This document shows, piece by piece, positions 3,770 through 63,668 of a stretch of 64,000 nucleotides of DNA. The position numbers and the translations under genes are program-made. The notes under the pieces were generated by a model. It was given only the letters and a program-made list of their open reading frames with translations. It did not search any database and was not told where the DNA came from. Position 1 is the stretch's first letter, and each line of letters starts with the position of its first letter. This DNA comes from Bacteroidota bacterium (lineage in GTDB: Bacteria; Bacteroidota; Ignavibacteria; UBA10030; UBA8401): positions 548 through 64,547 of the forward strand of contig JBFMFY010000013.1 in the NCBI GenBank assembly GCA_040751955.1, read 5' to 3'.

Positions 3770-3770
3770 A

Positions 3771-34862: not shown

Positions 34863-34865
34863 GAA

Positions 34866-35540
34866 TTATATTTTCTCCAATAAAAAGACCGGGACAAGTT
34901 GAAAAAGATTTGGAAAGTCTTGCAACAGACGATCTTTTATTGGATTGCTTGACCGTTCCAACCGGCATTCGACGACGTGCAAGCCGCCGACATCGTCCAG
35001 TAACTCATAAAAATCTTCAAACGACAACTGGTGGATATGTCCCGTTGAATACCATTTGTATTCGAACAACATTCTCTTCGGCATGCGGCCGTTCAATAAC
35101 AAGTCGAGGCGGTTTCTCCAGAATGCAAAATTAGGAAACGAGATGATCTGGTATTTTGCAACCCGCTTCATTTCCCGCACCAGCACTTCGGGATACATCA
35201 CCATCTGTATAGTCACATTGCAAATAGCGTAATCAAAAGCATTGTCATCAAACGGAAGCGTTTGATCTATTGCACCGAACTGCACATTCAATCCACGCTC
35301 TTTACAAATACGCACACCGCTTTCGGAAATCTCCAATCCGGTTTCCTTTACTGATTTCTCTTTTTTCAATCGTGCAAGCAGTGCGCCGTTGCCGCATCCC
35401 AGATCGATAACCTTGGAATTCATCTTGACCATATCAACAATGATCGGATACTCGTACCGCTCGGAATCCTCATAGCCAGAGTAGTCGTATTTGCGGTTGT
35501 CGTTCCTTTGCGGATCGTCAAGATGGTGTGTATTGTTCAT
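34866..35540 (-). CDS. MetW-like SAM-dependent methyltransferase.
   Basis: VIDLGCGNGALL...FDYAICNVTIQ and MetW-like YKWYSTGHIHQLSFEDF C-terminus. Confidence 0.65.
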   Translation of the reverse strand: MNNTHHLDDPQRNDNRKYDYSGYEDSERYEYPIIVDMVKMNSKVIDLGCGNGALLARLKKEKSVKETGLEISESGVRICKERGLNVQFGAIDQTLPFDDNAFDYAICNVTIQMVMYPEVLVREMKRVAKYQIISFPNFAFWRNRLDLLLNGRMPKRMLFEYKWYSTGHIHQLSFEDFYELLDDVGGLHVVECRLERSSNPIKDRLLQDFPNLFQLVPVFLLEKI

Positions 35541-36439
35541 GTGGAAAATAGTGATCGTAATTTATTCAATGCGCGGCGTGGCAATGAAGAACGCACTGAC
35601 CGAAAGAATTCAACATATGCCTGTCGTGCTTCTTGATTTTCCACGATGGGAATATCGTTTAACACAATTGGAGTTTGAGCGACAGACGTTCTGAAATCGG
35701 TCAACGATTTTGTATGTGTGCCCGATTCCCCCTCGCCAATATTGTTGACCAATGAACGTCCCGGGAAAAGGGTCAATTTTTCCAATAAAAAAGCAGAGGC
35801 GTGCCATCGAACTGCCCACGAATCGACCTTACCGCTGATTTGTTCTCTGAGCATCTTCATGTACCCGTAGGTACCGTCGAAATCGAAACGATGCTGCAAA
35901 TTTTTTTCTTTCAATTGTCGAAGCAATTTTTTGCTGTCTGGTTCGAACAATTCCCACCCCCGTTTCCATGTAGCCCACCCCCAGCAATCGGCGCCGCGAA
36001 GGAAAAAAGTTTCGGGAAGCGGTTTTGCTGTCGGATACGAATAGCCGTGAATGCTGATCACTTGTTCTTCATGCTCGTATTTTTCCAGCGCTTCGTTCAT
36101 ATACCGCAAAAAATACGGCGACGTCACGAGATCATCCTCTACAACGATTACTTTGCCGAAGCGGTTAACGATTTGCGTGACGCCGTCAATAACCGAATTC
36201 GCAAGACCGAAATTACGGTCACGTTCAATGATCTGTACGGATTTGAACCCTTTGAGTGATGATAAATACTTTCTGACTTCCTTCACAGCCGGTATATCCG
36301 ATTCACGCCTCGGACCATCTGAAAAAATAATGAGATCGCTCTCTAACGATAATAAATTTTTTTGCAACGCATGAACGGTTAACCGTGTATGCTCAAGACG
36401 GTTGAAGACAAATACTAATATGGGAGCCGGTACTGTCAC
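35537..36439 (-). CDS. Glycosyltransferase, GT2/GT-A like.
   Basis: PILVFVFNRLEHTRLTVHAL ... VVEDDL (DxD). Confidence 0.55.
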   Translation of the reverse strand: MTVPAPILVFVFNRLEHTRLTVHALQKNLLSLESDLIIFSDGPRRESDIPAVKEVRKYLSSLKGFKSVQIIERDRNFGLANSVIDGVTQIVNRFGKVIVVEDDLVTSPYFLRYMNEALEKYEHEEQVISIHGYSYPTAKPLPETFFLRGADCWGWATWKRGWELFEPDSKKLLRQLKEKNLQHRFDFDGTYGYMKMLREQISGKVDSWAVRWHASAFLLEKLTLFPGRSLVNNIGEGESGTHTKSLTDFRTSVAQTPIVLNDIPIVENQEARQAYVEFFRSVRSSLPRRALNKLRSLFST

Positions 36440-37929
36440 CGTCTGAATTGATTCTTTCCGAATGCTCTCTGTTGAACCAGTTCAAGCGGTTTCAGCAAAG
36501 ACCATTCCGATATTGCTTTTGCTATTTCTCTCGTCTTGAAAGCTCTACAGTAAATATAATCAAAACCTTTGCCGAATATTGATCGGAGTGATAGTCTGTG
36601 AGCCGCAGAGTCAATTCTGTACGAAAGATTGCTCACGACTATTAAAAGTGGAAATGGAATGAACCTGACTTTCATGATCATATCATTGATCCATTCAATT
36701 CTTCGAGTAGTCACGATTCCTTTGAAATATTTGGGGTCAAGAAGATCGTTACGCGTCAGTGTCTTGCGCATCGTTTTCACATCGAGGACATTATCGTCAC
36801 TCACCGGTTTAATATGACCTGCGTCGTTCTCTAGATCCAAACCGTTTCTTCTAAAAAAATCTCGCAGCCACACTCGATCTGTCCTTCGACTCTGAGGCAT
36901 GTTCAATTGCGACATCGCCACGGTCAGATCATAAAACGGAGTATAGGTTTCATAAAAAAGCGACGCTGTGCGAAAAATATATGACGCAAGACCGATCCTA
37001 CCACGACGGGCAAAGACAATCCTGAACAATCTGTCTTCCTTCAACCGCTGAGCATTTTTTTCAAATATTTCTCTTTTTATTGCATGATCCGTTTTCACTT
37101 CAATAAAATCTGAAGAGATTGAAATACCATGATTGAAAAAGAGCGATCCAAAATCAAGATGGTTTTTGGGAACTGAAAGCGGAATCTTCTCTCCGCTCCA
37201 CCAATCGCCGACACTGCCGGATAGAACAATAAAATCCTTGCCCTTCATTTGATTAATCTTGTCATACAGTTCAAAGTGGTATGACGCATGAATCGGCATT
37301 TCAAGACCAAATGTATCAAAATTCCTTTGGACATAATCGCTGTTCCAATATTGATCGAGGGAAATTTGCTCCCAATTGATATTTAGACGAGTACTCACTT
37401 CGTGGGCTCTTACAACCTCGAATGAATATTTTTCACTCAGGCTGATATCGTACGTTATAGCGTCTATCCGTGATTTATCCTGAATGAGCGTTGCAAGAAG
37501 TCTCGAATCATAACCACCCGAGAGCGGTAAAAGAAATCTTTTTTGTACATGGCGCTCCCTTGATTCACCTTCAAATGCAGCAACGTGCTGTTGCAAGTGC
37601 ATTATTGCCTCTTCTTCGCTGCTAGACTTCCCGACATATACATCGATCGGATCGGGTTCCTCTCTGATCTCCAACCGTAGGTCGGTGTTGTCAGTTTCGT
37701 GGACTGTAAGGATGGACGAATGCCTCAAGAACTTGACATCTTTGATCGGTGTTTGCTCGAACACCTGGTATCCAAAGGATAAGTAATTATACAATCCTTC
37801 CATATCGAACTCAAAATTATTCCAATCAATGACATCAAGCATGTTGCAACTGACTCTTTTTGTCCGGGAATTATAATATACCGGAGAGCTATTGATCCAA
37901 TCTGTTCGAAATGTGCTGATGTGATTCAT
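36436..37929 (-). CDS. Asparagine synthetase (AsnB) C-terminal-domain-like amidotransferase.
   Basis: PP-loop LPLSGGYDSRLLATL. No obvious N-terminal Cys glutaminase domain. Confidence 0.55.
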   Translation of the reverse strand: MNHISTFRTDWINSSPVYYNSRTKRVSCNMLDVIDWNNFEFDMEGLYNYLSFGYQVFEQTPIKDVKFLRHSSILTVHETDNTDLRLEIREEPDPIDVYVGKSSSEEEAIMHLQQHVAAFEGESRERHVQKRFLLPLSGGYDSRLLATLIQDKSRIDAITYDISLSEKYSFEVVRAHEVSTRLNINWEQISLDQYWNSDYVQRNFDTFGLEMPIHASYHFELYDKINQMKGKDFIVLSGSVGDWWSGEKIPLSVPKNHLDFGSLFFNHGISISSDFIEVKTDHAIKREIFEKNAQRLKEDRLFRIVFARRGRIGLASYIFRTASLFYETYTPFYDLTVAMSQLNMPQSRRTDRVWLRDFFRRNGLDLENDAGHIKPVSDDNVLDVKTMRKTLTRNDLLDPKYFKGIVTTRRIEWINDMIMKVRFIPFPLLIVVSNLSYRIDSAAHRLSLRSIFGKGFDYIYCRAFKTREIAKAISEWSLLKPLELVQQRAFGKNQFRR

Positions 37930-37967
37930 AGAATGAAATTTTTATCAGACAAAAAAGGGAATACAAA

Positions 37968-39158
37968 TCATCGCTGTATCATAGCTTTCTTGAAATATTC
38001 CGTATCCATTAACTGTGCTACGATCATGTGAGAGAGCAATGCGATCGGTACTGAAATCGGAACGAATCTATATCGCTGCACTGCCTGTCTTACATCTGTT
38101 TCCTGAAAAATAATATCCTGAGCAAAATTTCCCCACCGCTCGCTCGGCATCAGATCGATCGTCATACCGGCGTGTGCAGACGGCAGCAACATGTTCGATC
38201 CATGCACCCCGATGACAATTGCACTCTCGGAATACACTCCGCATAATCGGCGTTCGGTCTGCATCGTGAAGACTGCCGTCCGTTGGTCGTCAATCCATTC
38301 GGGAAACCGGGTTGACGCTCCAGCACCGGCAACCGTGTACAGCAACTCCGGAAATCTCTTCCGTAATTTTTTAAAGAGCGAGACGATCTTCCTGTTCTGC
38401 ATCTGACGGAATATCTGCATCATCTTCATCCTTTTTGCAGCAGCAATAACATACCGGTTGGCGAACCAGGGACGGTCGTCTCTCCAAATGAATGTGATAC
38501 GGGAGGGCGACATATCGGTTCCGTGCCGTCGCATCCTCGTAAACAAAGAGATATCCGCTACCTGAGGATGGGAATGTGCTTTGCTGAGAAAAATCCGTGA
38601 AAATCTTTTACACTCCTTTTCTATAGTTCGTTGAAGTGTGGGATAATAGTTTCTCCCCTTTGACAGCGGCAATTTTACCGTCCATACTTCCGCCACACCG
38701 TCGGGAACCATCCATCGAAGAAAATCCTGAACGATGACCACCAGTCCGATTTTTGCATCGTTCAGTAAGTGACGTTCCGCATTCAACAGTTTCAGGAGTG
38801 CATGTCCGTATAAATAATCGATCGTATTCAAAAGAACTACCTTTTTTGTCCGGCGGAATATCTCAACGTTCAGTTCGATCTCGTCGTTCTGCGGATGAGT
38901 CAGTGAATATAACAATGGTTCGCCGAACCACCGGCGAACTTCCGAAGGACAAAACAATTCTTGTGTCGCGAGATTCACGGTATAATCATTGAGCGATCCA
39001 TGTCCTGATGGGAGCGTCGAGATCAGTTTTTGCTTGGTAGCGCTGCACACGGTTTCAACGCACGTATGCATCCCCTGCCACACGATCTTTTCGGGAACAA
39101 GGATCCCCCCGTACGGTGAAGGTCGTTCAAATTCTATTTTCGGATAGATCTGGATCAT
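37968..39158 (-). CDS. Hypothetical protein, possibly a GT61/DUF563-like glycosyltransferase.
   Basis: IGVHGSNMLLP resembles the DUF563 G-x-HG-A-G motif. Assignment is weak. Confidence 0.3.
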   Translation of the reverse strand: MIQIYPKIEFERPSPYGGILVPEKIVWQGMHTCVETVCSATKQKLISTLPSGHGSLNDYTVNLATQELFCPSEVRRWFGEPLLYSLTHPQNDEIELNVEIFRRTKKVVLLNTIDYLYGHALLKLLNAERHLLNDAKIGLVVIVQDFLRWMVPDGVAEVWTVKLPLSKGRNYYPTLQRTIEKECKRFSRIFLSKAHSHPQVADISLFTRMRRHGTDMSPSRITFIWRDDRPWFANRYVIAAAKRMKMMQIFRQMQNRKIVSLFKKLRKRFPELLYTVAGAGASTRFPEWIDDQRTAVFTMQTERRLCGVYSESAIVIGVHGSNMLLPSAHAGMTIDLMPSERWGNFAQDIIFQETDVRQAVQRYRFVPISVPIALLSHMIVAQLMDTEYFKKAMIQR

Positions 39159-39946
39159 AAAATGCGGGAGATGCTTTCCGGCGACAGTGCAACATAATTC
39201 GCGTACTGATAATTCTCCATACTTACCTCATACGCACGCGGTTCCAGTCTGTGTTTCATGATCTTGAACAGGCGAAACCCGGCATCCTGAAGCAGATGAT
39301 ACAATTGCCGCAGCGTCGTTCCGGAATCCAGGTTCGCACCGCCGTATTCAAACTGTATCGCCTTAATAAAGCCGGCATTCAGGTATGCTCCCAATCCTCG
39401 GAAAGCGGCAAGTTCGTGCCCTTCAATGTCAATCTTCAGGAAATCTATCTTTTGAATATTCTGTTTCGATAGATACTCATCAAGGCGAACAAGTGCTATC
39501 GTCTCTTTTTTATTCATCGTGACATTCACCGAGGAAAGGTCGCGTTGATACAGTGAAGCGAATCCACTTTTCTCGGCGTCATAGAAAATTTCGGAAGCAC
39601 CGTTAGTATCCGACACACCGGTGTTGTTTAAAAATATATTTTGGTCATGTGAAAATTTCTGCCGGAGAGTCGTGAAGCATGACTGTGTCGGCTCGAACAA
39701 GTACAGTCGATAGTGCAATCCCTTACGTTTACATATATCAATAAGAACCTCCGAATACCCTCCTACATTCGCACCGACATCGAACAGGACAACATCGCCC
39801 TGCAGCGAATGGATGTACCGTCGTAAAAACTCCTCTTCGCCGTTGGTATGGAAGTCCGCATTGTTGTTGTTTTCCAGACGATTGAAAAGGGTGAACAGCA
39901 CACTCCGTACACGTGAAAGCAGTATATTTGCTTTAGATGGTTTCAT
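39155..39946 (-). CDS. FkbM-family methyltransferase.
   Basis: LFDVGANVGGYS motif. The ORF opens at 40117, but the internal Met at 39946 avoids a 160-nt overlap with the upstream gene. Confidence 0.65.
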   Translation of the reverse strand: MKPSKANILLSRVRSVLFTLFNRLENNNNADFHTNGEEEFLRRYIHSLQGDVVLFDVGANVGGYSEVLIDICKRKGLHYRLYLFEPTQSCFTTLRQKFSHDQNIFLNNTGVSDTNGASEIFYDAEKSGFASLYQRDLSSVNVTMNKKETIALVRLDEYLSKQNIQKIDFLKIDIEGHELAAFRGLGAYLNAGFIKAIQFEYGGANLDSGTTLRQLYHLLQDAGFRLFKIMKHRLEPRAYEVSMENYQYANYVALSPESISRIL

Positions 39947-39953
39947 ACCATGG

Positions 39954-40676
39954 TCACAATAACCGGGTGGAAAAGAAATCTTTATTCTTTTCACCTGCAA
40001 TTGCCTTCCAAATTCTTTTAGGATGTATCTTATTTGCAATTTGCCAACCGATTGATGGGCGCTGAAGCATGTACGGGTTGGAGAACACCTTATCCCAAAA
40101 TTCGTCTTCATTTTCAACTATTTTCAACGGGATATTACCCACGAATTCTAAACCAACGGCAACAATCCCCGGAAAAAACTCATCAATAGAAAAGAGGTCT
40201 CGTTTTCGCAATGACATTGAATATTCGGTAAATTTTTTCACCATTGAGAGATTAATCTTCTTTTTATCCAGACAAATAATTTCTCCACCAACTATATCAA
40301 GTATATTTAGATGAACTTCAAAATTGTAGATGTAATCATACAGGGGTCTTGGAAATTCAATATAGGCTTTGTTCCCGACCCTTTGTATTTCCGAAACCAA
40401 CAGTGGCAATTCTGATACCGGAACATGTTCAAGCACATGAGAACAAATTATATAATCAAATGATGCATCCTTAAATGGAAGTTTCCCTTTTTCAATCTTA
40501 AACAACGGCTTCCCCTTTGTGTTGAGATCTGCTCCTCCAAATTGTGTACGATCTACGTCGCTGGATTCATCGAAGATGTCGGCACAACAATCTGATCTCC
40601 AAAAGGGGTACGCCCCGGGTCCGATTTCAAGAACAACGTCCGATGATCTGATATTCATTACCTGCGGGAAAAACAT
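39954..40676 (-). CDS. Class I SAM-dependent methyltransferase.
   Basis: VLEIGPGAYPF motif I. FDYIICSHVLEHVP. Confidence 0.65.
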   Translation of the reverse strand: MFFPQVMNIRSSDVVLEIGPGAYPFWRSDCCADIFDESSDVDRTQFGGADLNTKGKPLFKIEKGKLPFKDASFDYIICSHVLEHVPVSELPLLVSEIQRVGNKAYIEFPRPLYDYIYNFEVHLNILDIVGGEIICLDKKKINLSMVKKFTEYSMSLRKRDLFSIDEFFPGIVAVGLEFVGNIPLKIVENEDEFWDKVFSNPYMLQRPSIGWQIANKIHPKRIWKAIAGEKNKDFFSTRLL

Positions 40677-40682
40677 ACTTTC

Positions 40683-41438
40683 TTATTTGCCTTTTTGAAA
40701 TGAAAATAATCCAACAGTATACCCATTGCTGGATCGAAATGATTCTAATAATTGACTGTCAACGATATAAAGTTCTTCAGATATCGTACATCCAATAAAA
40801 AGTGATACCAGATATTCCTTTGAGAATGATCTATGCCCATTGAAATAAACTCTGTTTTCTCTCTCAACTGGTACACTAAAATAAATATACCCGCCCGGTT
40901 TAGTCACCCGCACCAACTCGCCGATCGCCTTTTCACTCCCCATCGGATCGAGCGGATCGCCGTAGCGTCCCAAGCCGATATGCTCTACCACGCACAGCGA
41001 TGAGATTGATTCGATCGAATCGTTTTCGAACGGCAGGTCGAGTATCGAACCTTTTTGAAAGTAAAGATTCTCCAGTTGCAATTCCACAGGCCTGATATCG
41101 ACCATTGTGGTCGGAACGAATTGCGAAATGATTGCAATTGTTTTGGCAGAACTTCCGACGTCGTAATGGTGCTTCGGTTTGTTCTCGAATATTTTCCGCG
41201 CCGCCCATGCATCCTGATAGAAATACACCGAATCGAGCGGAGTTGTCTCGGTTTTATCGGTCAAGCAGGGATACCAATCCAGGAAAGAGATTGAAAAATT
41301 AGTATTGGAAGGGAGCGAGATGTACTTCGTGTAGTCAAACAAAAACCGGAACATGTTCGCCAGTATCGCAATGATATTCCACCCATATTGGGGTTTTAAA
41401 AGAATGTAGAGCCGATAGAGGAGTTTCAGTACTTTCAT
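40683..41438 (-). CDS. DUF268-like putative methyltransferase.
   Basis: HYDVGSS...LCVVEHIGLGRYGD...GGYIYFSVP, matching the DUF268 SAM-MTase fold. Confidence 0.45.
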   Translation of the reverse strand: MKVLKLLYRLYILLKPQYGWNIIAILANMFRFLFDYTKYISLPSNTNFSISFLDWYPCLTDKTETTPLDSVYFYQDAWAARKIFENKPKHHYDVGSSAKTIAIISQFVPTTMVDIRPVELQLENLYFQKGSILDLPFENDSIESISSLCVVEHIGLGRYGDPLDPMGSEKAIGELVRVTKPGGYIYFSVPVERENRVYFNGHRSFSKEYLVSLFIGCTISEELYIVDSQLLESFRSSNGYTVGLFSFQKGK

Positions 41439-42736
41439 TGCTTCAAAGAGAATTTATAGAATGTGAAAATACCGGTCATCATGGCGTGAAAGTTTCGTTT
41501 TGTTTTTGGGTTCAGCGCATCGATAGCAAATGTCGTCACGATAAAACCGCAATGCGCCGCGATGATACAGCCGAACACTCCCATACGCGGAATCAGGATG
41601 TAATTCAGCACAATGTTGACCGCAGATCCCGTCATTGCGCAGACCATGGCATGACGAAACAATCCCTCGGTGGATGTATAAATACTTCTCGCCACACCGA
41701 TGTTCGAATAGAACCGGCTCCAGATAAGGATCGTCAAGATCGTCGCCGAATAGGCGAATTGTTCGCCGTAGAGTATATCGACGATCGGTCCGCTCAACAG
41801 AGATATAGGAAGGCACATCGCTATCGTCAGGATCGTCATGACCCTGTATAAATTCGTCAACCGTCTGCCGTATTCCTCGTCGCTCCATTCTTTCGTACGA
41901 ACGATGACCGGAAAGACAGAACTTAAGATAATCATCGGAACAAAGCCGAGCGGCTCTGCAATTTTTTGTGCCGCCGCATAAAGACCAATCTCTTTCTCCC
42001 CCAACATCTCACGGAGCATCACCTGATCGATCCGTGTTTGCATAAAGATAGCAAGATCGGTGATAATAATCGGCCAGCTGTTGGTCAGTAATTCCTTCGC
42101 TTTCTGTAGGTGAAAGTTCCATTGACCGATACTGTTCCCGTTTTTTTTGTACATCGCTACAAGTCCTGCTGCACCAAGCAGGATCTCAAGCGCACTTGCC
42201 GACACAAAATAAATAAGATCGGCGCCATACACGATCAAAACGATCTTTACACAGGCAATAATGAAGAAGGCGGAATTTTTTGCGTACACCGTGAATTTGG
42301 ATTGTACCTGAGATTGGAACCATTGATCGATCACATCAAACGATTGGAACACCAATCCCGCTGATGTAATAATCACAAGCCAGTGTGTCAGCGTGTCTTC
42401 CGGCCTTACAATGAAAATCGCGATCGCGGAAAAGATCAATGCGCTCAGCGCACCGAACAACCGCAGTCCGAATGCGGATCCGATGATCAGATCTTTCTTC
42501 GACGGATCCCGCACAATGTCGCGAATGACGATGCTGTCAATGCCCAGCGTTGCCATCGGCATGAACATTCCGACAAATGCCAGAGCGTAGTTGAAGACAC
42601 CGTTCTGTTCAGGACCGAGATACCGCGTAAGCCATGCATTGATGAACACGGCACCAGTCATTCGCACGCCGCGATCGATCAGCAACCATCCGAGGTTTGA
42701 AACGGTCTTCTTCAGTGTTGTTGAGGTTGTCAACAA
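41435..42736 (-). CDS. wzx: Wzx-like oligosaccharide flippase (MOP superfamily).
   Basis: 433 aa with about 12 TM helices. Typical position in a glycan locus. ATGA overlap with the downstream gene. Confidence 0.7.
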   Translation of the reverse strand: MLTTSTTLKKTVSNLGWLLIDRGVRMTGAVFINAWLTRYLGPEQNGVFNYALAFVGMFMPMATLGIDSIVIRDIVRDPSKKDLIIGSAFGLRLFGALSALIFSAIAIFIVRPEDTLTHWLVIITSAGLVFQSFDVIDQWFQSQVQSKFTVYAKNSAFFIIACVKIVLIVYGADLIYFVSASALEILLGAAGLVAMYKKNGNSIGQWNFHLQKAKELLTNSWPIIITDLAIFMQTRIDQVMLREMLGEKEIGLYAAAQKIAEPLGFVPMIILSSVFPVIVRTKEWSDEEYGRRLTNLYRVMTILTIAMCLPISLLSGPIVDILYGEQFAYSATILTILIWSRFYSNIGVARSIYTSTEGLFRHAMVCAMTGSAVNIVLNYILIPRMGVFGCIIAAHCGFIVTTFAIDALNPKTKRNFHAMMTGIFTFYKFSLKQ

Positions 42737-42772
42737 GGGATGGTGTGTGTTGTGGTGAAGTGAAAATTCATG

Positions 42773-45277
42773 TTACACCGTGGTTGTGCGTTTCTTCTGC
42801 ACAAAAAATCTCACTGCAAAGTATCCTAATCCTCCCAATACAAGAATATTGAGCCAGAGGCTCAAATTCTTTCCGAGATAAAATCCTGCGGGTTCAAACT
42901 CCATCGTTACCACGTGATCGCCTTGAGGCACGACGACGCCGCGGAACATATAGTTGAGACGATAGATCGGTGTTTCGGTTCCATCGATAAATGCTTTCCA
43001 CCCTTCGGGATACCACGACTCGCTGAGAAAAACTAAGTTGCTCCCTGTTGCATGCACCTTCAATTCAAGATCTTGAATTCCATAATGCGAATATTGAACA
43101 GATGCACCTTCCTGCGGAGGATCGATTGCCGCGTGAATATCTTCCATGACATATGTGACATCATAAGGATTAAATTTCATTCCTTTGATATTGTTAAGGA
43201 TATCCAAACCCTTTGCAACTTCATATCGGCTCACAAAAAAAGCCCTGGGCATTTCAGCGCGATTATAGAGAACATGTTTACCGCTGCCGGCAAAGACAGG
43301 AAAAAGTACGCTGTTTGAATCGGCACGATCGGAAAGGATATATTTAACATTCATCAACCCCCACAACAGCGGATTACCTAACCCTACCACGTCAAACACA
43401 TCCTGGATCTGACGCATTTTCGCTCCCTGATATCCGTATGCACTTTGGATCCTCCAATACGCCAGTGTGTTGTTGTACGGCGGCTGACCGTTTTCAAATT
43501 CTATTGTCCTGTACAGCGACGTATCCTGCTGCATGAATGAAACATAGGATGGAGTTGCAAACATACTTTGTGCATCACGATGCGGCTGGGGATTCATCGG
43601 TTTAAAATTAACTCTCCACAAATCGATCAACACAACAGAGACGAGCACGGCAACAAGGATCGTCAACGAAATCTTGTTCTTGATGAAGAGGTACAATCCT
43701 CCGAGCCCTGCAATAAGAAGTAATATTCCCGCCGTAATTTCGCTGGAGATAAATCCGGTGATGATCTTGTGGACGATTGCGGCGTTAGTACCGAATTTTT
43801 CCGCCAATACCTGAGATGGAACAAACATTTCATAGAAGGAAAGAAAAAGTTCTTTGAAAATTACGGAAAGGACGAGTAGTGCAGCCAGAACGATTAACGA
43901 GTATTGAAAATACTTCAAGAACGCATTATCCTTATCTGATGCCTGGTTCATCATTGCAGCGATCCCATATCCCGCAAGCACAGGAACGAAGATCTGCACA
44001 AGGATCAAAATCATAGAAGGAATGCGGAATTTGTTGAACATCGGAAAATAATTGAACATCAGATCATACACCAGCGGCATCTCTTTACCGAACGAAATCA
44101 GAAGCGAGATAAAGACGACAATCGTTGAATATTGTACGAACGGATCTTTTCTGTTTCTCCAAACACCAATCCCGGCAAGGATCACAATCACAACACCCAT
44201 ATATTGCGGCGCATCGGTAAACGGCATAGGACCAAAATATAGCGGAAGTCTCTGCTCGGTGTTATTTGTTTCCGGACCTTGATACGGCACAGCCGAACCG
44301 AATCCGTACCACGACGGAACAAAGAATGTCATTACTTCACCGGGAGAAAACGACCAGTTCGTCGCATATTCGTAATCAAGTCCGCCGTTCGTCGCCCCTT
44401 TCGCTTGTGCCTCCGCTGACGGTACGATCGGGTCCGAACCGCGCATCGAGTATTTAGAATATTCAAGCGTCGAAAGATATTGATCCCCTGTCATGAGAAA
44501 TGCAAGCCCGGTCGCCACTGCAAAGATAGAACCGGATCGGATTACTCCCTGCCAATGTTCCTTTTTGATCAGCGACCAGACAAGGAAAAAGAGATAGTAT
44601 ATGCCGAATGCAAAATAACAGTAAAAAATCATTTGGATGTGCCCCGGCAAGAGCATAAAATGAACAAGCAGGACAAGGAGAAGTGAGAGCCGAAGATCGA
44701 ATTTCTCCCTGAGCCTTTCGATGATCATGAAGATCCAGGGAAAGAAAGCAATCACAGGTACCTTTGTCATATGTCCCACGATGACCAAAATAATGACATA
44801 GGTGGAATGCATAACGGCAAGTCCGGAAATCAGCGCGGCGATTTTATTCTTTAATTTGTCATGAACAAAAAAATAGACTCCCGCTCCGAGAATCCAATAA
44901 TAGAACAATCCCCAGCCGACATCCGGGCTGTTCATAATTGCACCGAACAGTTTTGATCCCCTGTTGATGATAAATGCGGACACATCAAAATACCGTTCGC
45001 CGTGGACGGTCAAACTCGCGTACCCCGGCATGCCGCAAAAGATATACGGGTTCCACAGCGGAAAAATTCCCTGTTGTTCCGCATCGCTCACCAGCGTTTG
45101 AAAACTTTTGGATGCAATGTTGTCAGCCGCAACAAATACCTTACCTTCAAATACAACTTCATTGAAGAATACCACCAGCGAAAGCAGTATCGCCAGCACG
45201 GCAGCCGGATGTTGGAATTTAGCGGGAATAAGAGGGGTTTCTGTCTGTTGCTTCTGAGATTTTTTTGCGGTCGCCAT
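42773..45277 (-). CDS. YfhO-family large polytopic membrane protein (GT-C-like).
   Basis: 834 aa. WNPYIFCGMPGYASL resembles the conserved YfhO N-terminal motif. Many TM helices plus a C-terminal periplasmic domain. Confidence 0.55.
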   Translation of the reverse strand: MATAKKSQKQQTETPLIPAKFQHPAAVLAILLSLVVFFNEVVFEGKVFVAADNIASKSFQTLVSDAEQQGIFPLWNPYIFCGMPGYASLTVHGERYFDVSAFIINRGSKLFGAIMNSPDVGWGLFYYWILGAGVYFFVHDKLKNKIAALISGLAVMHSTYVIILVIVGHMTKVPVIAFFPWIFMIIERLREKFDLRLSLLLVLLVHFMLLPGHIQMIFYCYFAFGIYYLFFLVWSLIKKEHWQGVIRSGSIFAVATGLAFLMTGDQYLSTLEYSKYSMRGSDPIVPSAEAQAKGATNGGLDYEYATNWSFSPGEVMTFFVPSWYGFGSAVPYQGPETNNTEQRLPLYFGPMPFTDAPQYMGVVIVILAGIGVWRNRKDPFVQYSTIVVFISLLISFGKEMPLVYDLMFNYFPMFNKFRIPSMILILVQIFVPVLAGYGIAAMMNQASDKDNAFLKYFQYSLIVLAALLVLSVIFKELFLSFYEMFVPSQVLAEKFGTNAAIVHKIITGFISSEITAGILLLIAGLGGLYLFIKNKISLTILVAVLVSVVLIDLWRVNFKPMNPQPHRDAQSMFATPSYVSFMQQDTSLYRTIEFENGQPPYNNTLAYWRIQSAYGYQGAKMRQIQDVFDVVGLGNPLLWGLMNVKYILSDRADSNSVLFPVFAGSGKHVLYNRAEMPRAFFVSRYEVAKGLDILNNIKGMKFNPYDVTYVMEDIHAAIDPPQEGASVQYSHYGIQDLELKVHATGSNLVFLSESWYPEGWKAFIDGTETPIYRLNYMFRGVVVPQGDHVVTMEFEPAGFYLGKNLSLWLNILVLGGLGYFAVRFFVQKKRTTTV

Positions 45278-45390: not shown

Positions 45391-46785
45391 TTATTTGTAC
45401 GAAGCAAATGCGATTTTCCATTCTCCACCAGGTGTCAATCCGGTATAATAGATTCGCAATTCATTATTGATTTTTGTTAGGTAAGGATATACGATACCGC
45501 CCGAAGCCCAATGATTGGATGTCTGGCTGTGCTTGAAGATCGGGTTTTTTGAATCTTTCACCCAATGGATACCATCCTCTGACGTCGCAAAGCCAAATGC
45601 GATATTTGAATAACTAAATGGATCATCGTTGGTATAAATCATCTTATAAATGCTTCCGTCCTTCACGACTGAAACCCAGGATATGTCTCCATTCTCCCAC
45701 GATTGTGAGGCTGACAAAATCGGAGAAGTGGAATATCTTTTCCATGTTAGTCCGTCTATTGAAATAGCCAATCCAATTTTGTCACCACTACAATAATACA
45801 TGTAGTATTGATTACCAATAATTTCAACCTCAGATGCTACCATAGTGTTTCTTTCCCAATCCAAGCTGTCAGTAAAAACAGGTTGAGGATACTTTACCCA
45901 GTTCTTCCCATCCACCGATGATGCTAATCCAATTTGAAAATGTTTTGATATAGCATCATATCCTTGGTAGAGCATAAAATATTTAGGCCCCACTTTATAA
46001 ACAGGACCTGGTCCAGTACCCCCATCATCCCAACTTCCTGAAGGTCCGACAACAATGATTGGTGTCGAATCTGGTCGGTTCCAATTCACACCGTCGTATG
46101 ATTCTGCATAACCCACCGGACTGGGAAAAGAATAATTCAAATAATACATCCGATACATTCCATCATCAACGTAAATCTTCGGTTGACCAACCCCGCCCCA
46201 ATCAATTGGTTTTCCGGTTTTTGTCAATATTGGATTATTTATATGATCTACCCACTTCTTCTCAGAAGTACCCCACGTAACATTAATCTGCACACTCCCG
46301 ACACCTGTCGGCACCGGAGTCAATGTCAGATTCACCTGCGTTACCGCCCCTTCTAATACGTTCACGTCTGCTTCCCCGGTATATAGTACCTTGGAGCTTT
46401 CATCTTTTGCATCCACTTTCACTTTCCAGGTTCCAACAGCCACTTCGCTGAAAAGCATTGTGGCAGATGTATCGGTAATGATATTGATAGTTTTCGAGAG
46501 TGTTGCGTACCCACTGCGCGAGAGTGTTGCAGTCAATGTTTTTACCGATGCAGGGGCGTTCGCTTTATCGAATGTAAAAGCGATATTGCCTACGTTTGAT
46601 ATCGGCGCGCTCGTTGTTACAGGTGTATTTTTTTGCTCACAACCTCCAAGAGCGAAAAGAAAACCGAAAACCAGAATTGCCAGATTTTTCATTGTGCCTC
46701 CCATAGTTCTCCTTGTGTGAAGATTATGCTGAATTTTCTTCTTTAGCAAGCTGAATTTTACGGTAAAAAAATGCTCCCGAGACAA
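45391..46785 (-). CDS. Lipoprotein with an Ig-like domain and a 5-bladed beta-propeller glycoside hydrolase-like domain (GH43/GH32/GH130 clan).
   Basis: Lipobox LGGCEQ. Repeated S-DG--W-K blade signatures (SYDGVNWNR, SVDGKNWVK, SIDGLTWKR, SEDGIHWVK). Confidence 0.5.
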   Translation of the reverse strand: MSREHFFTVKFSLLKKKIQHNLHTRRTMGGTMKNLAILVFGFLFALGGCEQKNTPVTTSAPISNVGNIAFTFDKANAPASVKTLTATLSRSGYATLSKTINIITDTSATMLFSEVAVGTWKVKVDAKDESSKVLYTGEADVNVLEGAVTQVNLTLTPVPTGVGSVQINVTWGTSEKKWVDHINNPILTKTGKPIDWGGVGQPKIYVDDGMYRMYYLNYSFPSPVGYAESYDGVNWNRPDSTPIIVVGPSGSWDDGGTGPGPVYKVGPKYFMLYQGYDAISKHFQIGLASSVDGKNWVKYPQPVFTDSLDWERNTMVASEVEIIGNQYYMYYCSGDKIGLAISIDGLTWKRYSTSPILSASQSWENGDISWVSVVKDGSIYKMIYTNDDPFSYSNIAFGFATSEDGIHWVKDSKNPIFKHSQTSNHWASGGIVYPYLTKINNELRIYYTGLTPGGEWKIAFASYK

Positions 46786-46858
46786 TTGACTCTCGATTAC
46801 TCTTTGTCTATATTTTCGGCAGTTCTATCAGCATACTTTCACTTATCAGGAGCACACA

Positions 46859-47155
46859 ATGTCAGATTACTCACTGGATGCACTCGGAATGGTTGAAACC
46901 AAAGGTCTTGTCGGAGCGATTGAAGCTGCCGACGCAATGGTAAAAGCCGCAAAGGTTACATTGATAGGCAAGGAGCAGATTGGCGGCGGCTACGTGACCG
47001 TGATGGTGCGTGGCGATGTGGGAGCAGTCAAAGCAGCCACGGATGCCGGTGCAGCAGCGGCACAGCGTGTCGGTGAACTCGTATCGGTGCATGTCATTCC
47101 GCGTCCGCACAGCGATGTGGAAATGATTCTTCCGAAACGTCCGGCATCAAAATAA
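46859..47155 (+). CDS. Bacterial microcompartment shell protein, BMC-H (PduA/EutM/CcmK-like).
   Basis: [30 protein letters not shown]...[18 protein letters not shown] is the canonical PF00936 sequence. AGGAGC RBS. Confidence 0.9.
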
Positions 47156-47204
47156 TTATCTTTGATTTTCCTACCTGCAAATTTGGAAGATCATAAAGAC
47201 AGTT

Positions 47205-47741
47205 ATGTTAGAACTTGCATTCGGACTTGTGGAAACGAAAGGTCTTGTGGGTGCTGTTGAGGCAGCCGACGCAATGGTCAAAACCGCCAATGTAAAGTTG
47301 ATCGGCAGAGAGCGTACAGACCCGGCAATGATCACCATAAAAATTTTAGGTGATACGGCAGCTGTACGTTCTGCAGTTGAAGCGGGTGCTGCAGCGGCAC
47401 AGCGTGTAGGGCAATTGGTTTCCAAGCATGTCATCCCCCGCCCGGCAGAAAACCTTGAAGAACTCGTATTTGCAAAATCTTTTTTAAGCGATGAAGAAAT
47501 TGCGCTTTTGATCGGCACCAGTCAGACACCCGGCATTGAGGATGAGAAAGAGCAATTTACACCTCCAACTGCATCTTCCGATAAAGAAAAATATACGGCA
47601 GAGTTGCAGGCAATGACCGTGCATCAGTTACGTAACTACGCGCGCAGCGTTGAAGGACTTTCCATCTACGGCAGACAAATCTCGATGGCGAACAAAGAGG
47701 AACTGATTGCGGAATTGCTGAAGACAAAGTACGGAATATAA
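47205..47741 (+). CDS. BMC-H shell protein with a C-terminal extension of about 80 aa that ends in a HeH/Rho-N/SAP-like helix-extension-helix motif.
   Basis: [29 protein letters not shown]...VGQLVSKHVIPRP is a BMC domain but lacks the GxG pore motif. The extension contains ELQAMTVHQLRNYARSVEGLSIYGRQISMANKEELIAELL. Confidence 0.85.
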   Translation: MLELAFGLVETKGLVGAVEAADAMVKTANVKLIGRERTDPAMITIKILGDTAAVRSAVEAGAAAAQRVGQLVSKHVIPRPAENLEELVFAKSFLSDEEIALLIGTSQTPGIEDEKEQFTPPTASSDKEKYTAELQAMTVHQLRNYARSVEGLSIYGRQISMANKEELIAELLKTKYGI

Positions 47742-47777
47742 TGTCGAGACAACGATAATTTTTACCAACGCCCGCTT

Positions 47778-48728
47778 TTGCGGGCGTTCCCATTTGACAG
47801 CGCTAGAATCATGAAAGAAAATAAATTCACGATCATATTTTTCTCTCTCTTATTTGCTGCAATTGTCTGGCTCTCCGTGGATATGGGAAATACGTTTCAA
47901 ACATCAATCGAACTCCCTATCCGTGTCGAACATCTCCAGCAGAACAAAGCAATCGCTTCGCCGCTTCCTACAACAATTCGATTAAAGATCCAGGGGAATG
48001 GTTGGCAGCTGTTAAATATTGTATTGTCGCCAAATTTACGGTACACAATCGATTTCAGTACGCTGTCCAAACGAGACACCGTATTTACGTACAATGACCT
48101 TACCGAACATATAAACCTGCCAAAAGAGATCCATATTTTCGAGACTACGCCGGAAACAGTCTTTGTCCAAATAGATGACAAAATAACGAAGAAGGTCCCG
48201 GTGGAACCGGTCGTATCGACTCTCTACCGCGATGGATTCGGGATTGTCGGAACAATGAAACCTGAACCCGATAGCATTGTTCTTACCGGAGCTCGTTCAT
48301 TGCTCAACCGTATCACAACGTGGAAAACCGATGCCGTTTTGCTGAAAGATATCAATGCTCCCGTTGCAGCTATTATTCCGTTGCAAGATTCTCTTCGATT
48401 GGAAGTAGAACGGTCGCATTCTACCGTGCGCTTGACCTTTGACGTCCAGCCGGTAGCAGAAAAAACAATCGAGAATATTCCTATCGAAGTGAATCAGCTA
48501 CCCGAAAACCGCAGCGTAGTATTGATCCCGCCAACACTCTCGGTTATTATTCGGTCCGGTGTGAATGCGGTCGCGCCGTTAAACGAGAAAGATTTTAATG
48601 CGTTTGTCGATTACAAATCGATCTTGCTGGATACAAGCGGCTATGTTCACCCTATTATCCTCGGACCTGAAAACATTAAGATCGTACAACAGAATCCGGA
48701 AAAAATTCAGTATGTCGTCCGAAAATAA
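47778..48728 (+). CDS. YbbR-like (CdaR-type) repeat-domain protein with an N-terminal TM anchor.
   Basis: TM FTIIFFSLLFAAIVWLSV. Repeated beta-rich units (TTIRLKIQGNGWQL, ETVFVQID) resemble PF07949. Lies 37 nt after the second BMC gene. Confidence 0.5.
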   Translation: MRAFPFDSARIMKENKFTIIFFSLLFAAIVWLSVDMGNTFQTSIELPIRVEHLQQNKAIASPLPTTIRLKIQGNGWQLLNIVLSPNLRYTIDFSTLSKRDTVFTYNDLTEHINLPKEIHIFETTPETVFVQIDDKITKKVPVEPVVSTLYRDGFGIVGTMKPEPDSIVLTGARSLLNRITTWKTDAVLLKDINAPVAAIIPLQDSLRLEVERSHSTVRLTFDVQPVAEKTIENIPIEVNQLPENRSVVLIPPTLSVIIRSGVNAVAPLNEKDFNAFVDYKSILLDTSGYVHPIILGPENIKIVQQNPEKIQYVVRK

Positions 48729-48760
48729 AAAAGCCGAACATATTGTTCGGCTTTTTTATA
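48727..48760. terminator. Bidirectional rho-independent terminator.
   Basis: AAAAAAGCCGAACAtatTGTTCGGCTTTTTT. Confidence 0.75.
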
Positions 48761-48779
48761 GTGCACTTCGCTTGCAGGA

Positions 48780-50444
48780 TCAGAAGGCTCGGTTCAGTCT
48801 AAAGAAGACCGCAACAGGCGCACTCTTATCGGTTCTCCACGCAAACCCTAACCTCGCGTTTCCGTCATGCCAGCTCAGGGCAAATCCGAGATCCGATTTG
48901 ACTGTTGGTGTTGAGATCGCATCGAACCCCTCATAGATTGCCTTCTTCGCAGGTACGTTGGCTACAGCACCTGCGTCAGCAAAAAGAATAAGGTTAAAGA
49001 AATCGGGCCAGAAGAAAATCTCATCTATCAATTCGCCAGTCATCTGGTATTCAAGATTACCAAGAATCATCCTGTTCCCCACAAATTCTTTGAATCCGTA
49101 CGCCGGCATTGTATTGGCACCGCCAAGTTCAAACATCCGCTGTACAACCGTATTTCCCTCTAATGCCCCGGCACGAATGCGCGCGCTGATCTGATCATCG
49201 TCAGAAAGTGATTGATACCGGCGAATATCAACAAGTCCGTGTGTGAAACTATAATCACCACCGAATTGATTTCCTGCTACCTCAATCTTAGTCAATGCAT
49301 CCCACCCCTCTGAGCGCCTACGGTATCTCTCTACGGTATTAAATCCGGCAGCAACGCTTACACTTCGCAGCATTCCCTCGTTAACCAACGGATTTGAGCG
49401 GAACCGATGCCCGCCAAAGACAGCCCAACTTGCCCGTTGGTCCATTGATGTATAACGATCAACATTGTATCGGACATCGATCATCGTCGTCACATCACCA
49501 TCTTTTGTGTACCGTGCGGTGTGGACGGAATATCCCTCACGCTGGAAATAATCCCGGAAATCCTGATGGAAGAAGAGTGCGGCAAGATTGTTCTCACCCA
49601 GTTTCATGATCCATTCATCTTTTGTGTCGGTCAGGCTGTGAACCTCCGCGCCGATTTCGTACAGCCCGGAAGAAGTCGCGAATTGACGATCAAGTCCTAG
49701 CTGCATGCGCCATTTGTGCGAAGCGAAACCGTAACCAAATGAGCCGTAACCGGACAAGGTACGGCTGCCATCCCAGTAATATTCTTTGTTTTTTCCGAAA
49801 CCAAAGAAAAATCCTTCCACCCGATTATAGCGGAAAAGAAAATTATCGTCGTATTCTCTGTCATACCACATAAACGGTTTGAACGAGTACGAATATTTTG
49901 CTCTCGATGTTCGTTTGCTGCGGGAGCTGCGCGATTCATAACTCTTATTCGATTCTTCAGTATAACCTTCAACGATTGCCCCTTCCTCCTTTGTGATCGA
50001 ACCGTTCATCGCACGGGCATTTCCTTTCACAAGTGCAGTTCTTTTCACAATAATATCACCGTTCACAACGAGCACATCACCAACTACAGTCCCGCGAATC
50101 GTCAATGTCCCGTTTTTAACGACAAGATCTCCTTGGATAGTATCGACTTCTGCAATTTCGGTATCTCCGTTAAATGTGATCGCGTCGGGCGTCTCTTTAT
50201 TCTGATCCTGTTCTCCCACCTCAACGATGGTAGATTGGTGTAAATACGAATTTCTTCCTTCGACAAAATCATCAATACGATGTTCAACACCTTCTACGAT
50301 CTCATCGATGAACAGTTCAATATTATCAGTTGTGTAATCGATTTCCTCTTCCGTGTGATCGAAACTTGGCTGGGCTTCCTGTGCTTGAACTGAAAGGAAT
50401 ATAAAAAATGCGGCAGTGACAGTGGTAGTACAAAATGATTTCAT
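48780..50444 (-). CDS. Outer-membrane protein with an N-terminal bactofilin-like beta-helical repeat region and a C-terminal beta-barrel.
   Basis: Signal peptide. GDLVVKNGTLTIRGTVVGDVLVVNGDIIV repeats. C-terminal FFRLNRAF with a terminal aromatic residue. Confidence 0.45.
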   Translation of the reverse strand: MKSFCTTTVTAAFFIFLSVQAQEAQPSFDHTEEEIDYTTDNIELFIDEIVEGVEHRIDDFVEGRNSYLHQSTIVEVGEQDQNKETPDAITFNGDTEIAEVDTIQGDLVVKNGTLTIRGTVVGDVLVVNGDIIVKRTALVKGNARAMNGSITKEEGAIVEGYTEESNKSYESRSSRSKRTSRAKYSYSFKPFMWYDREYDDNFLFRYNRVEGFFFGFGKNKEYYWDGSRTLSGYGSFGYGFASHKWRMQLGLDRQFATSSGLYEIGAEVHSLTDTKDEWIMKLGENNLAALFFHQDFRDYFQREGYSVHTARYTKDGDVTTMIDVRYNVDRYTSMDQRASWAVFGGHRFRSNPLVNEGMLRSVSVAAGFNTVERYRRRSEGWDALTKIEVAGNQFGGDYSFTHGLVDIRRYQSLSDDDQISARIRAGALEGNTVVQRMFELGGANTMPAYGFKEFVGNRMILGNLEYQMTGELIDEIFFWPDFFNLILFADAGAVANVPAKKAIYEGFDAISTPTVKSDLGFALSWHDGNARLGFAWRTDKSAPVAVFFRLNRAF

Positions 50445-57362: not shown

Positions 57363-58805
57363 CTAATACACAGTAACTCTGTCAAGGTTATTTGTTTTCA
57401 CCTTCAATGCGTTAACAACATCACCTATGATAATAACTCCCGGCGCTTCGGTTTTTGCAGTTTGTATATTCTTAGCAATTGTCGAAAGCGTTCCTTCAAC
57501 TACAATCTGTTTTACAGTCGTCCCGCCGTAAATGACTGCAACCGATGTTTCTCCATCTCGTCCGCACTCAATTAACCTCGCAGAAATTACAGGCAGATTT
57601 CTTATCCCCATGTAAATAACTATGGTATCGATTGCAGCAACATTTTTCCAGTCAACGCTCTTTCCCTTATTGGATATTTCACTGCCGGTAATAAATACGA
57701 CACTGGATGCGATGCCGCGATGTGTTAACGGAATTCCGAGTGAAGAAGCAATCCCAATTCCTGCGGTAATTCCCGGAATAATCTCCACATCAATTCCTTC
57801 TTCGCACAACGATAATAATTCTTCCCCACCTCGCCCAAATACGAATGGATCGCCACCTTTAAGTCGAACAACATTTTTTCCTTCTTTCGCTTTAGTAATG
57901 AGGATATGATTGATTTCTTCTTGAAGGACAAAATGCCCTCCAGAACGTTTACCAACAAATATTTTTTCGCAATCATGTTTTGCAGAAGAAAGAAGTTCCG
58001 AATTGACAAGTGCATCGTACGCAATTACATCCGCTTGATGAATTGCATGAAGACCTTTGACTGAGATTAAATCGGGATCGCCCGGACCAGCACCAACGAG
58101 GAGGACTTTGCCGGTTTTGCTTGTCATCGCGAGTCCCGATTTCATCGGGACGAAGCGACCTCCTGCCGCCTTACTCGCGGGAGATTGCTTCGTTTTAACT
58201 TTGTTGGAACTCGCAATCACACTATTTAACTGTAGTTTCTTCAATTCATCATCAACAATTTTCACCAGCACTTCTTTTCGCTTTTCTGATTCTGCGTATG
58301 CAGAATGAACATACGGACGAATCTCGCCAAGTGTATCAAGCAGTTCGGGATATCCTTTACCAAATTCCTTCGCAATTCTGTCTCGGATTATTTTACCAAG
58401 TGTGGGACTTTTCCCGTTTGTCGAAACAGCAACTTTCAAATCGCCATTTTGAAAAATAGAAGCAAGATAGAAATTGCACAAGTCAGGAACATCAACTACA
58501 TTCACGGGAATATTGTGAGAACCTGCATCGTCAAAAATTTCTTTGTGCACCACAGGATTGTTTGTTGAAGCAAAAACAAGAACGAATCCTTCAACATCTC
58601 CTTTTCTGTATTCTCTTTGTTGAACGGAAATTCTTCCCTTTGCGGATAATTTTTCAAGACGGTGCGTCAACTTCGGGGCAACAACTGTTATACTTGCATT
58701 TACTTCCAGCAATCCCATTACCTTTTGTTCAGCAATTTTTCCTCCGCCGACAACAAGCACCGGTTTACTTTTTAATCTGAGGAAAATAGGATAGAGTATA
58801 TTCAT
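57363..58805 (-). CDS. cysG: Siroheme synthase: precorrin-2 dehydrogenase/ferrochelatase domain plus uroporphyrinogen-III C-methyltransferase.
   Basis: N-terminal LVVGGGKIAEQK Rossmann. C-terminal LVGAGPGDPDLISVKG methyltransferase motif. Confidence 0.85.
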   Translation of the reverse strand: MNILYPIFLRLKSKPVLVVGGGKIAEQKVMGLLEVNASITVVAPKLTHRLEKLSAKGRISVQQREYRKGDVEGFVLVFASTNNPVVHKEIFDDAGSHNIPVNVVDVPDLCNFYLASIFQNGDLKVAVSTNGKSPTLGKIIRDRIAKEFGKGYPELLDTLGEIRPYVHSAYAESEKRKEVLVKIVDDELKKLQLNSVIASSNKVKTKQSPASKAAGGRFVPMKSGLAMTSKTGKVLLVGAGPGDPDLISVKGLHAIHQADVIAYDALVNSELLSSAKHDCEKIFVGKRSGGHFVLQEEINHILITKAKEGKNVVRLKGGDPFVFGRGGEELLSLCEEGIDVEIIPGITAGIGIASSLGIPLTHRGIASSVVFITGSEISNKGKSVDWKNVAAIDTIVIYMGIRNLPVISARLIECGRDGETSVAVIYGGTTVKQIVVEGTLSTIAKNIQTAKTEAPGVIIIGDVVNALKVKTNNLDRVTVY

Positions 58806-58850
58806 TACATTTTCAATTTTTGGTTCCTAAATCACGCACAGAAAGTTCCA

Positions 58851-60974: not shown

Positions 60975-61051
60975 CTCACCTTTTTGAAACTGCAGGAACT
61001 GGTGAAAATCCGTTCCTAATACGCGGATTTTCATCCGCACCGACAAAAACA

Positions 61052-62293: not shown

Positions 62294-62366
62294 AATTATT
62301 TTTTGTAAAAAAGATTGAAAGACCGTTCCTTATTTATGCACTGACTTTCGTCCGTGACTACAATAG

Positions 62367-63257: not shown

Positions 63258-63293
63258 TTTTGTTTTTTTGACCTCATAATTGCGATTTCATTT

Positions 63294-63653: not shown

Positions 63654-63668
63654 AATTTTAATTGAGGG

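Follow-up and report, generated by a model that had tools for sequence, protein, structure and literature searches.

Two bacterial microcompartment (BMC) shell genes and a ybbR gene stand in tandem in a 64,000-nucleotide stretch of Bacteroidota bacterium contig JBFMFY010000013.1 (assembly GCA_040751955.1, positions 548–64,547, class Ignavibacteria), referred to here as the window and numbered from its first letter. The shell genes, BMC-H1 and BMC-H-ext, most probably encode the facet-forming hexamers of a FRAG1-type dispersed microcompartment with ybbR as an ancestral, shell-independent neighbor. These two genes are a genuine example of the hexamer genes catalogued for FRAG1. That type is defined by an oddity already in print, namely that no pentamer or cargo genes lie close by; the puzzle posed by the locus is real but on record.

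A shell hexamer pair of probable FRAG1 type

BMC-H1 (46,859–47,155, + strand) encodes a canonical hexamer shell protein of 98 residues that matches PF00936 with E = 6e-30 and a bit score of 103.5 against a gathering cut-off of 24.5. The protein passes the NCBIfam EutM equivalog model (140.5 bits, cut-off 133), and its sequence contains a EutM-like IGGGY pore loop together with the edge lysine and the RPH motif. BMC-H-ext (47,205–47,741, + strand) encodes 178 residues, of which residues 5–80 match PF00936 (E = 5.5e-27, 94 bits) and about 100 form a C-terminal extension. The tiling edge motifs are kept in both sequences, AADAMVK and IPRPH in BMC-H1 and AADAMVK and IPRPA in BMC-H-ext. The BMC-H-ext pore loop reads RTDPAM at the place of IGGGY. 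An earlier note on this DNA, made from the sequence alone, had described two tandem canonical BMC-H genes, the second without a GxG pore loop, and both descriptions are borne out. An AlphaFold2 (AF2) model of BMC-H-ext, built on an alignment of database representatives, has a predicted local distance difference test score (pLDDT) of 88.7 overall, 97–98 in the tail and 52–67 in the linker that precedes it. Residues 1–80 of the model superpose on EutM, PduA, and CutN with a root mean square deviation of ~1 Å at 50–58% identity (Foldseek), and the target-normalized template modeling scores of 0.87–0.93 correspond to the canonical, non-permuted α/β fold. The profile matches of both proteins and the model of BMC-H-ext place the two in the BMC-H family and predict that they form hexamers that tile into shell facets.

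The shell genes of FRAG microcompartments are dispersed, occupying as many as six sites in a genome, and their enzymes and encapsulation peptides are often unidentifiable (Sutter et al. 2021, Nat Commun 12:3809, PMC8217296). The FRAG1 type comprises 57 loci, mostly from Ignavibacteria and allied FCB lineages, that contain shell genes only (PMC8217296, Supplementary Data 2). Its shell has one standard BMC-H, one BMC-H with a long C-terminal extension, and a BMC-P triplet of the green, grey, and orange clades encoded elsewhere in the genome, and FRAG1-labelled BMC-P proteins from Ignavibacteria metagenome-assembled genomes (MAGs) appear in the trees of the same study (PMC8217296). The supplement records no encapsulation-peptide matches in FRAG genomes (PMC8217296). 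The window and its relatives agree with this description in their two BMC-H types, their Ignavibacteria-type hosts, and the lack of signature or core enzymes nearby, as judged from the scanned window proteins and the gene tables of relatives. The earlier note's suggestion that these are satellite shell genes serving an organelle whose other genes lie elsewhere fits this assignment, since the pair matches FRAG1 with its scattered shell genes and distant BMC-P (PMC8217296). The complete locus with a signature enzyme elsewhere, by which that note would have been refuted, is not what the literature reports, and no enzyme or encapsulation peptide is known for FRAG1 (PMC8217296). In keeping with the literature, the BMC-P triplet and any cargo of the window's system would be expected elsewhere in the genome.

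Pfam was run on 53 of the ~56 predicted window proteins, a set that does not include the last two short open reading frames (ORFs; 63,294–63,998). There was no match to PF03319 (BMC-P), PF00171 (aldehyde dehydrogenase), PF06130 (PduL), glycyl-radical enzymes, or RuBisCO, nor to DisA_N (cdaA) or glmM, among the scanned proteins. A BMC-P hidden Markov model (HMM) built from four seeds, each validated against PF03319 at 81–109 bits, gave zero matches among window ORFs of ≥45 residues. These scans uphold the earlier statement that BMC-P, aldehyde dehydrogenase, PduL, RuBisCO, and cdaA are missing from the 64 kb.

An alternative is that the locus is an ordinary satellite providing extra hexamers for an enzyme-bearing microcompartment encoded elsewhere, with MIC4 as the candidate type. 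MIC4 loci occur in Ignavibacteria, and Melioribacter roseus has both MIC4 and FRAG1 components (PMC8217296). Satellite loci are defined by PF00936 genes only or PF03319 genes only, with the shell genes contiguous and at least one non-satellite BMC locus at another place in the genome (Axen et al. 2014, PMC4207490); as to shell composition, the window agrees, having only two contiguous PF00936 genes. However, the catalogue treats FRAG1 as a type of its own that lacks enzymes (PMC8217296), and MIC4 has its own BMC-H genes (MROS_0101). The fixed housekeeping position of the pair and its own conserved promoter in every lineage sampled also suggest a stand-alone system, and we regard the satellite explanation as quite improbable.

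The extension of BMC-H-ext begins with a disordered, acidic, length-variable linker (residues ~90–123), which AF2 predicts with low confidence, and ends in an ordered tail of four helices (residues 124–176, pLDDT 97–98). The motif (A/L)MTVHELRxYARxxxGLxIYGRxISxANKxxL is near-invariant among homologues, and 36 of 45 homologous tails match the Pfam Rho_N family, the best with E = 1.2e-5. An exhaustive search of database representatives found the tail in 80 clusters. Sixty-seven of these are short proteins, 44 with a BMC domain and seven with matches to Rho_N at values up to E = 1e-13. The profile matches make the tail look like a member of the Rho_N/HeH (SAP-like) helical class. Repeats of the HeH-like motif of the BMC-H-ext tail, five to six per protein, were also seen in the giant proteins P0126 (1822 residues), P0129 (1367), P0141 (2174), and P0150 (960).

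In a canonical BMC-H the C terminus is found on the concave side of the hexamer, and in solved shells, such as that of Haliangium ochraceum (PDB 5V74), this side points outward to the cytosol. By this analogy, the BMC-H-ext tails are probably displayed outside the shell, toward the cytosol. BMC-H1 would then be the standard tile and BMC-H-ext a second tile with a different pore (RTDPAM) that bears a Rho_N/HeH-like domain on a flexible linker of ~35–40 residues. The six tails per hexamer on the outside of the shell may bind nucleic acid or some other partner in the cytosol, perhaps for positioning, and it is unlikely that they recruit cargo inside the shell.

Synteny and repeated losses of the shell pair and ybbR

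A scan of the genome collection with BMC-H-ext recovered 67 loci with identities from 82% down to ~43%. All 67 are from MAGs labelled Ignavibacteria/Ignavibacteriales or Bacteroidota/Bacteroidetes, with Chitinophagaceae or Chlorobiaceae in the record titles of a few third party annotation entries. The nearest relative is a locus in an Ignavibacteriales MAG (82% identity). Flanks of up to 10 kb were taken for genome loci and 6 kb for metagenome loci, ~100 loci in total, and the window proteins were mapped onto the genome loci by local HMMER. Wherever a related locus extends far enough (~100 loci), BMC-H1 is the gene immediately before BMC-H-ext. The gene that follows the pair could be judged in 63 species loci and is ybbR in 36, the convergent Omp85-like gene in 16, PdxJ in three, and an unrelated gene in eight. 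The synteny of BMC-H, BMC-H-ext, and ybbR that the earlier note proposed to look for in relatives is invariant for the shell pair and ancestral for the three genes, but ybbR adjoins the pair in those 36 loci only.

No BMC-P, BMC-T, or known BMC enzyme was found in the fetched flanks of the ~100 loci. This result, the lack of encapsulation-peptide matches in FRAG genomes, and a promoter that looks constitutive are consistent with a pentamer-less, non-organelle use of the hexamers, in which sheets, tubes, or a scaffold would be displayed on nucleic acid via the HeH tail and no closed compartment would form. The BMC-P triplet reported for FRAG1 genomes and the FRAG1-labelled BMC-P proteins recorded in Ignavibacteria MAGs (PMC8217296) argue against this view, as do the seven dispersed BMC-P genes of M. 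roseus, an ignavibacterium (PMC4207490), and it appears unlikely. The hexamer pair of a dispersed FRAG1 compartment, with its pentamers encoded at other sites, remains the better account of these genes.

Both phylogenies trace the association between the pair and ybbR. In the BMC-H-ext tree, the ybbR-adjacent state is found on all deep branches; it is missing from a large clade of 24 species, from a small clade, and from a single lineage. Of five YbbR orthologues that were looked up, two lack the BMC pair and retain YfhO upstream and the Omp85-like gene, PdxJ, BFN-UVR, and electron transfer flavoprotein (ETF) genes downstream, unchanged. A metagenome scan with the YbbR alignment placed the pair upstream of ybbR in 20 loci and found it absent from ~11 (~31 judged), and five more could not be judged; in the YbbR tree, the loci without the pair fall at three places within lineages that have it. 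Because both trees show nested absences, the order BMC-H1, BMC-H-ext, ybbR is, on sequence phylogeny, the ancestral one from which one-sided losses occurred repeatedly: ybbR was lost on three or more occasions from loci that retain the pair, and the pair on three or more occasions from loci that retain ybbR.

Loci without the pair look as if a two-gene shell cassette had been cleanly deleted. In the sister lineages L078, L079, L083, and L085, GH130 or YfhO is followed directly by ybbR, and the promoter in front of ybbR resembles the BMC-H1 promoter (compared with window 45,391–47,811). The ybbR gene of the pair-less loci is preceded by TTGATTCTC...CTATATTTTC, which resembles the BMC promoter of the window clade, AATTGACTCTC...CTATATTTTC, and lacks the upstream heptamer described below. 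ETF, PdxJ, and GH130 were considered as hidden cargo and rejected: ETF and PdxJ flank ybbR even where the BMC pair is absent, and GH130 adjoins ybbR in some of the loci from which the pair is absent.

The ybbR gene (47,811–48,728, + strand) encodes a 305-residue protein with an N-terminal membrane helix (residues 2–24) and three YbbR-type β domains (PF07949, E = 2.3e-8). Its start is set at the ATG at 47,811 by a 100% identical, 305-residue database protein annotated as a CdaR family protein, and nearly all of ~120 listed YbbR homologues are also 305 residues long. The gap between BMC-H-ext and ybbR is therefore 69 nt and contains a hairpin; the 37 nt given in the earlier note counted from a TTG at 47,778 and has to be corrected. 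The AF2 model (pLDDT 88.4) shows the helix at 2–24 followed by the three β domains, and its best PDB match in Foldseek is the YbbR-like structure 4qdy (E = 2e-8), followed by 5hqh and 3lyw. The membrane-anchored YbbR-repeat protein that the earlier note placed downstream of the shell genes is confirmed by both searches. The protein begins with MKENK and a stretch of 18 hydrophobic residues, which points to an N-in, C-out topology. CdaR has its YbbR domains on the outer side of the membrane (PMC10636490), and by this analogy the bulk of the window YbbR would be periplasmic, across the membrane from the cytoplasmic BMC hexamers, with ~5 residues left in the cytoplasm. A tether for cytoplasmic hexamers is disfavored because the YbbR repeats should face the periplasm, and YbbR would instead be a periplasm-facing envelope protein that is independent of the shell.

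A single functional module, in which the membrane protein YbbR would anchor sheets or shells of hexamers or transmit their signals, draws support from the ancestral same-strand order of the three genes across the class, from the several lineages in which ybbR follows the hairpin too closely to have a promoter of its own, and from the resemblance between the ybbR promoter of BMC-less loci and the BMC-H1 promoter. Against it, the pair stands without a neighboring ybbR in 27 of 63 species, ~11 of 31 ybbR loci have no pair, and the losses are independent and repeated. The Omp85-like, PdxJ, BFN-UVR, and ETF genes are also conserved, with or without the pair, so general synteny explains the adjacency of the BMC genes and ybbR, and the predicted topology offers only the ~5 cytoplasmic residues for contact. 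We consider such a module highly improbable. The earlier picture of a membrane sheet tethered by YbbR is not supported, given the repeated separate losses, the hairpin conserved between the genes in most loci, and the periplasm-facing repeats expected by CdaR analogy (PMC10636490). YbbR is probably an old chromosomal neighbor of the FRAG1 hexamer pair rather than its functional partner.

Promoter, heptamer, and intercistronic hairpin

A near-consensus σ70-type promoter (TTGACT-17-TATATT; 46,786–46,814, + strand) precedes BMC-H1, and an AGGAG ribosome-binding site lies ~7 nt before the BMC-H1 ATG. The pattern TTGAC[AT]-N17-TAT[AT]TT is found upstream of BMC-H1 in 62 of 63 distinct related loci, the remaining locus (L072) having TTGATT. 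Strict matches to it numbered 81 on both strands of 1.34 Mb of related DNA, and 78 of the 81 are upstream of BMC-H1. High and probably constitutive expression of the pair is predicted from the near-consensus promoter and the strong ribosome-binding site.

The heptamer TGCTCCC (reverse complement GGGAGCA; 46,772–46,778) lies 14 nt upstream of the −35 box and is a candidate operator. Of the 63 distinct loci, 44 have an exact copy in either orientation no more than 200 nt upstream of BMC-H1, compared with a background of 0.176 per kb; L001, L019, L026, L030, L031, and L044 are examples. Its position varies, as it can precede the −35 box, fall within the spacer, or lie in the 5′ untranslated region, and it is often an inverted pair of the form TGCTCCC-N4-13-GGGAGCA. 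The heptamer is absent from the 12 BMC-less ybbR promoters. It could be an operator that marks the dispersed FRAG1 regulon.

The spacer between BMC-H-ext and ybbR contains a hairpin, AACGCCCGC-TTTT-GCGGGCGTT (47,767–47,788, + strand), with a 9-bp stem, a predicted folding energy of −21.1 kcal/mol, and a z score of −3.0. It looks like an attenuator or terminator. In the window clade the stem is GC-rich and the T tail weak; a hairpin is present at the same place after BMC-H-ext in most related loci, followed by a T-run in most lineages, and was not seen in a few (L061, L067). The 3′ arm keeps GGAG followed by T5–9 across deep lineages (L064, L065, L069, L073, and L074; also L001 and L057–L060), and GGAG stands at Shine-Dalgarno distance where the T-run abuts the ybbR ATG. 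Because of this spacing, the hairpin could also mask ybbR translation. Locus L027 has a 219-nt spacer between BMC-H-ext and ybbR (3803–4021) with a near-perfect hairpin of ~150 nt; the whole spacer folds with −98 kcal/mol and resembles an insertion of the miniature inverted-repeat transposable element type. A σ70-like match in the window at 47,794–47,822 was ruled out as a ybbR promoter as its −10 element overlaps the ATG. Rfam returned sub-threshold chance matches only for 46,500–48,900.

The near-consensus promoter, strong ribosome-binding site, and terminator-like hairpin in most loci make the pair an autonomous two-gene cassette. A single promoter may serve all three genes, with the hairpin ending most transcripts after the shell genes and ybbR reached at a lower level by read-through. 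The single transcription unit of the earlier note is thus plausible, several lineages having no room for a ybbR promoter, but it has to accommodate the terminator-like hairpin between the genes and a ybbR that is probably expressed through read-through. Downstream of ybbR, a bidirectional intrinsic terminator (48,729–48,757) is common to ybbR and the convergent Omp85/DUF5686-like gene. It has a 12-bp stem with A/T runs and folding energies of −17.3 kcal/mol on one strand and −17.5 kcal/mol on the other (z scores −3.7 and −4.0), in agreement with the earlier description of this element.

Several observations weigh against the favored reading of the locus. The three-gene order survives down to ~31–45% YbbR identity. 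The T-run of the deepest lineages reaches right up to the ybbR ATG, which leaves no room for a separate ybbR promoter; the BMC pair and ybbR are probably co-transcribed there, and a loose functional link is possible. Membership in FRAG1 is assigned from two of the three shell components and from taxonomy. The tail of the window BMC-H-ext reaches 22.2 bits against Rho_N (E = 1.4e-4), under the gathering score of 24.9, and its profile has no match among PDB sequences at E up to 10. We infer both the outward orientation of the tails and their possible binding of nucleic acid.

A bolder proposal combines these elements: FRAG1 would be a non-metabolic, constitutively made shell or lattice whose extended hexamer exposes six HeH domains on the outside that bind DNA or RNA, its production wired to that of YbbR through one promoter and a leaky terminator, with GGGAGCA marking the dispersed genes. 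We think it unlikely that this combination is correct. A dispersed FRAG1 microcompartment with a shell-independent ybbR is the reading that we retain.

Window content and comparison with known systems

The three + strand ORFs sit between a divergent GH130-like gene (45,391–46,785, − strand), which neighbors BMC-H1 upstream, and a convergent Omp85/DUF5686-like gene (48,780–50,444, − strand) downstream of ybbR, both assigned by Pfam and as the earlier note had them. A polysaccharide-biosynthesis cluster lies upstream of the shell pair, and the downstream side encodes PdxJ, a BFN/UVR nuclease, ETF α and β, HisC, and HisD. The polysaccharide cluster (30,425–45,277) is large, with its end adjoining the BMC pair, and encodes GT4, FdtA, a DegT aminotransferase, several methyltransferases, GT2, an asparagine-synthase-like protein, a flippase, and YfhO. 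Its content varies among relatives, and the downstream side of the pair is conserved.

Three further gene groups were noted in the window. Positions 1–7260 hold a cluster of secreted or surface proteins, among them a protein of >970 residues with TIG, BNR-like, and fn3 domains that extends past the window edge, a DUF4384 protein, a caspase-family (Peptidase_C14) protein with a CARDB domain, and a second TIG protein. A hybrid sensor kinase is encoded at 7379–9850, with an N-terminal seven-transmembrane region, PAS domains, HisKA/HATPase, and a receiver domain. Positions 57,363–64,000 are an assimilatory sulfate-reduction cluster that encodes a siroheme synthase, a CysN-like GTPase, a CysD-like protein, a rhodanese-like protein, a 733-residue sulfite/nitrite reductase with duplicated NIR_SIR domains, and a 3′-phosphoadenosine 5′-phosphosulfate reductase fragment at the window edge.

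Among microcompartments, the fragmented types, FRAG1 included, are the least understood, being shells without a known cargo, enzyme, or encapsulation peptide. No later paper mentioning FRAG1 was found in the literature searched. Relative to that literature, it is new that the pair has a fixed chromosomal position and a presence/absence polymorphism, that it has a near-consensus promoter accompanied by a heptamer, that an attenuator-like hairpin is conserved, and that the tail can be assigned to the Rho_N/HeH class. These features are leads to the missing parts of FRAG1 and not a new kind of system. The hexamer pair is available as a fixed, autonomous, and probably highly expressed cassette, and its clean loss in sister lineages offers comparative genomics a natural contrast between genomes with and without it. 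With the conserved promoter and heptamer as guides, the rest of the regulon, cargo included, could be located, and the extended hexamer with its HeH-type tail, probably exposed outside, is a further handle. The YbbR tether is removed as a tempting but weak lead.

The window pair is like FRAG1 as described in having a standard BMC-H beside a BMC-H with a long C-terminal extension, here ending in an ordered domain, in an Ignavibacteria host with no enzyme genes beside the shell genes. It differs from that description in features that Sutter et al. 2021 do not mention, namely ybbR, the fixed chromosomal position, the conserved promoter and heptamer, and the hairpin; neither "YbbR" nor "07949" occurs in the text of that paper or its supplements (PMC8217296).

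BMC-H-ext resembles EutK in joining a hexamer-type BMC domain to a small helical domain of a kind associated with nucleic acid binding. The C-terminal domain of EutK is a helix-turn-helix. Unlike EutK, BMC-H-ext scores 81.4 bits on the NCBIfam EutK model (cut-off 218), has a tail that is Rho_N/HeH-like and does not match a helix-turn-helix family, carries a disordered linker of ~35–40 residues, and is not in a eut operon. The window YbbR shares an N-terminal membrane helix and tandem YbbR/L25-like β domains with CdaR, the regulator of the cyclic di-AMP cyclase CdaA in Firmicutes. It differs in having three predicted domains instead of four, in the lack of cdaA and glmM among the scanned proteins of the 64 kb, and in neighbors that are envelope and housekeeping genes. 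The pair is also comparable to the cyanobacterial satellite ccmK loci (CcmK3/K4), which are likewise tandem shell hexamer genes set apart from the other organelle genes under their own regulation, but carboxysomes have a defined main locus and cargo, whereas FRAG1 has neither known.

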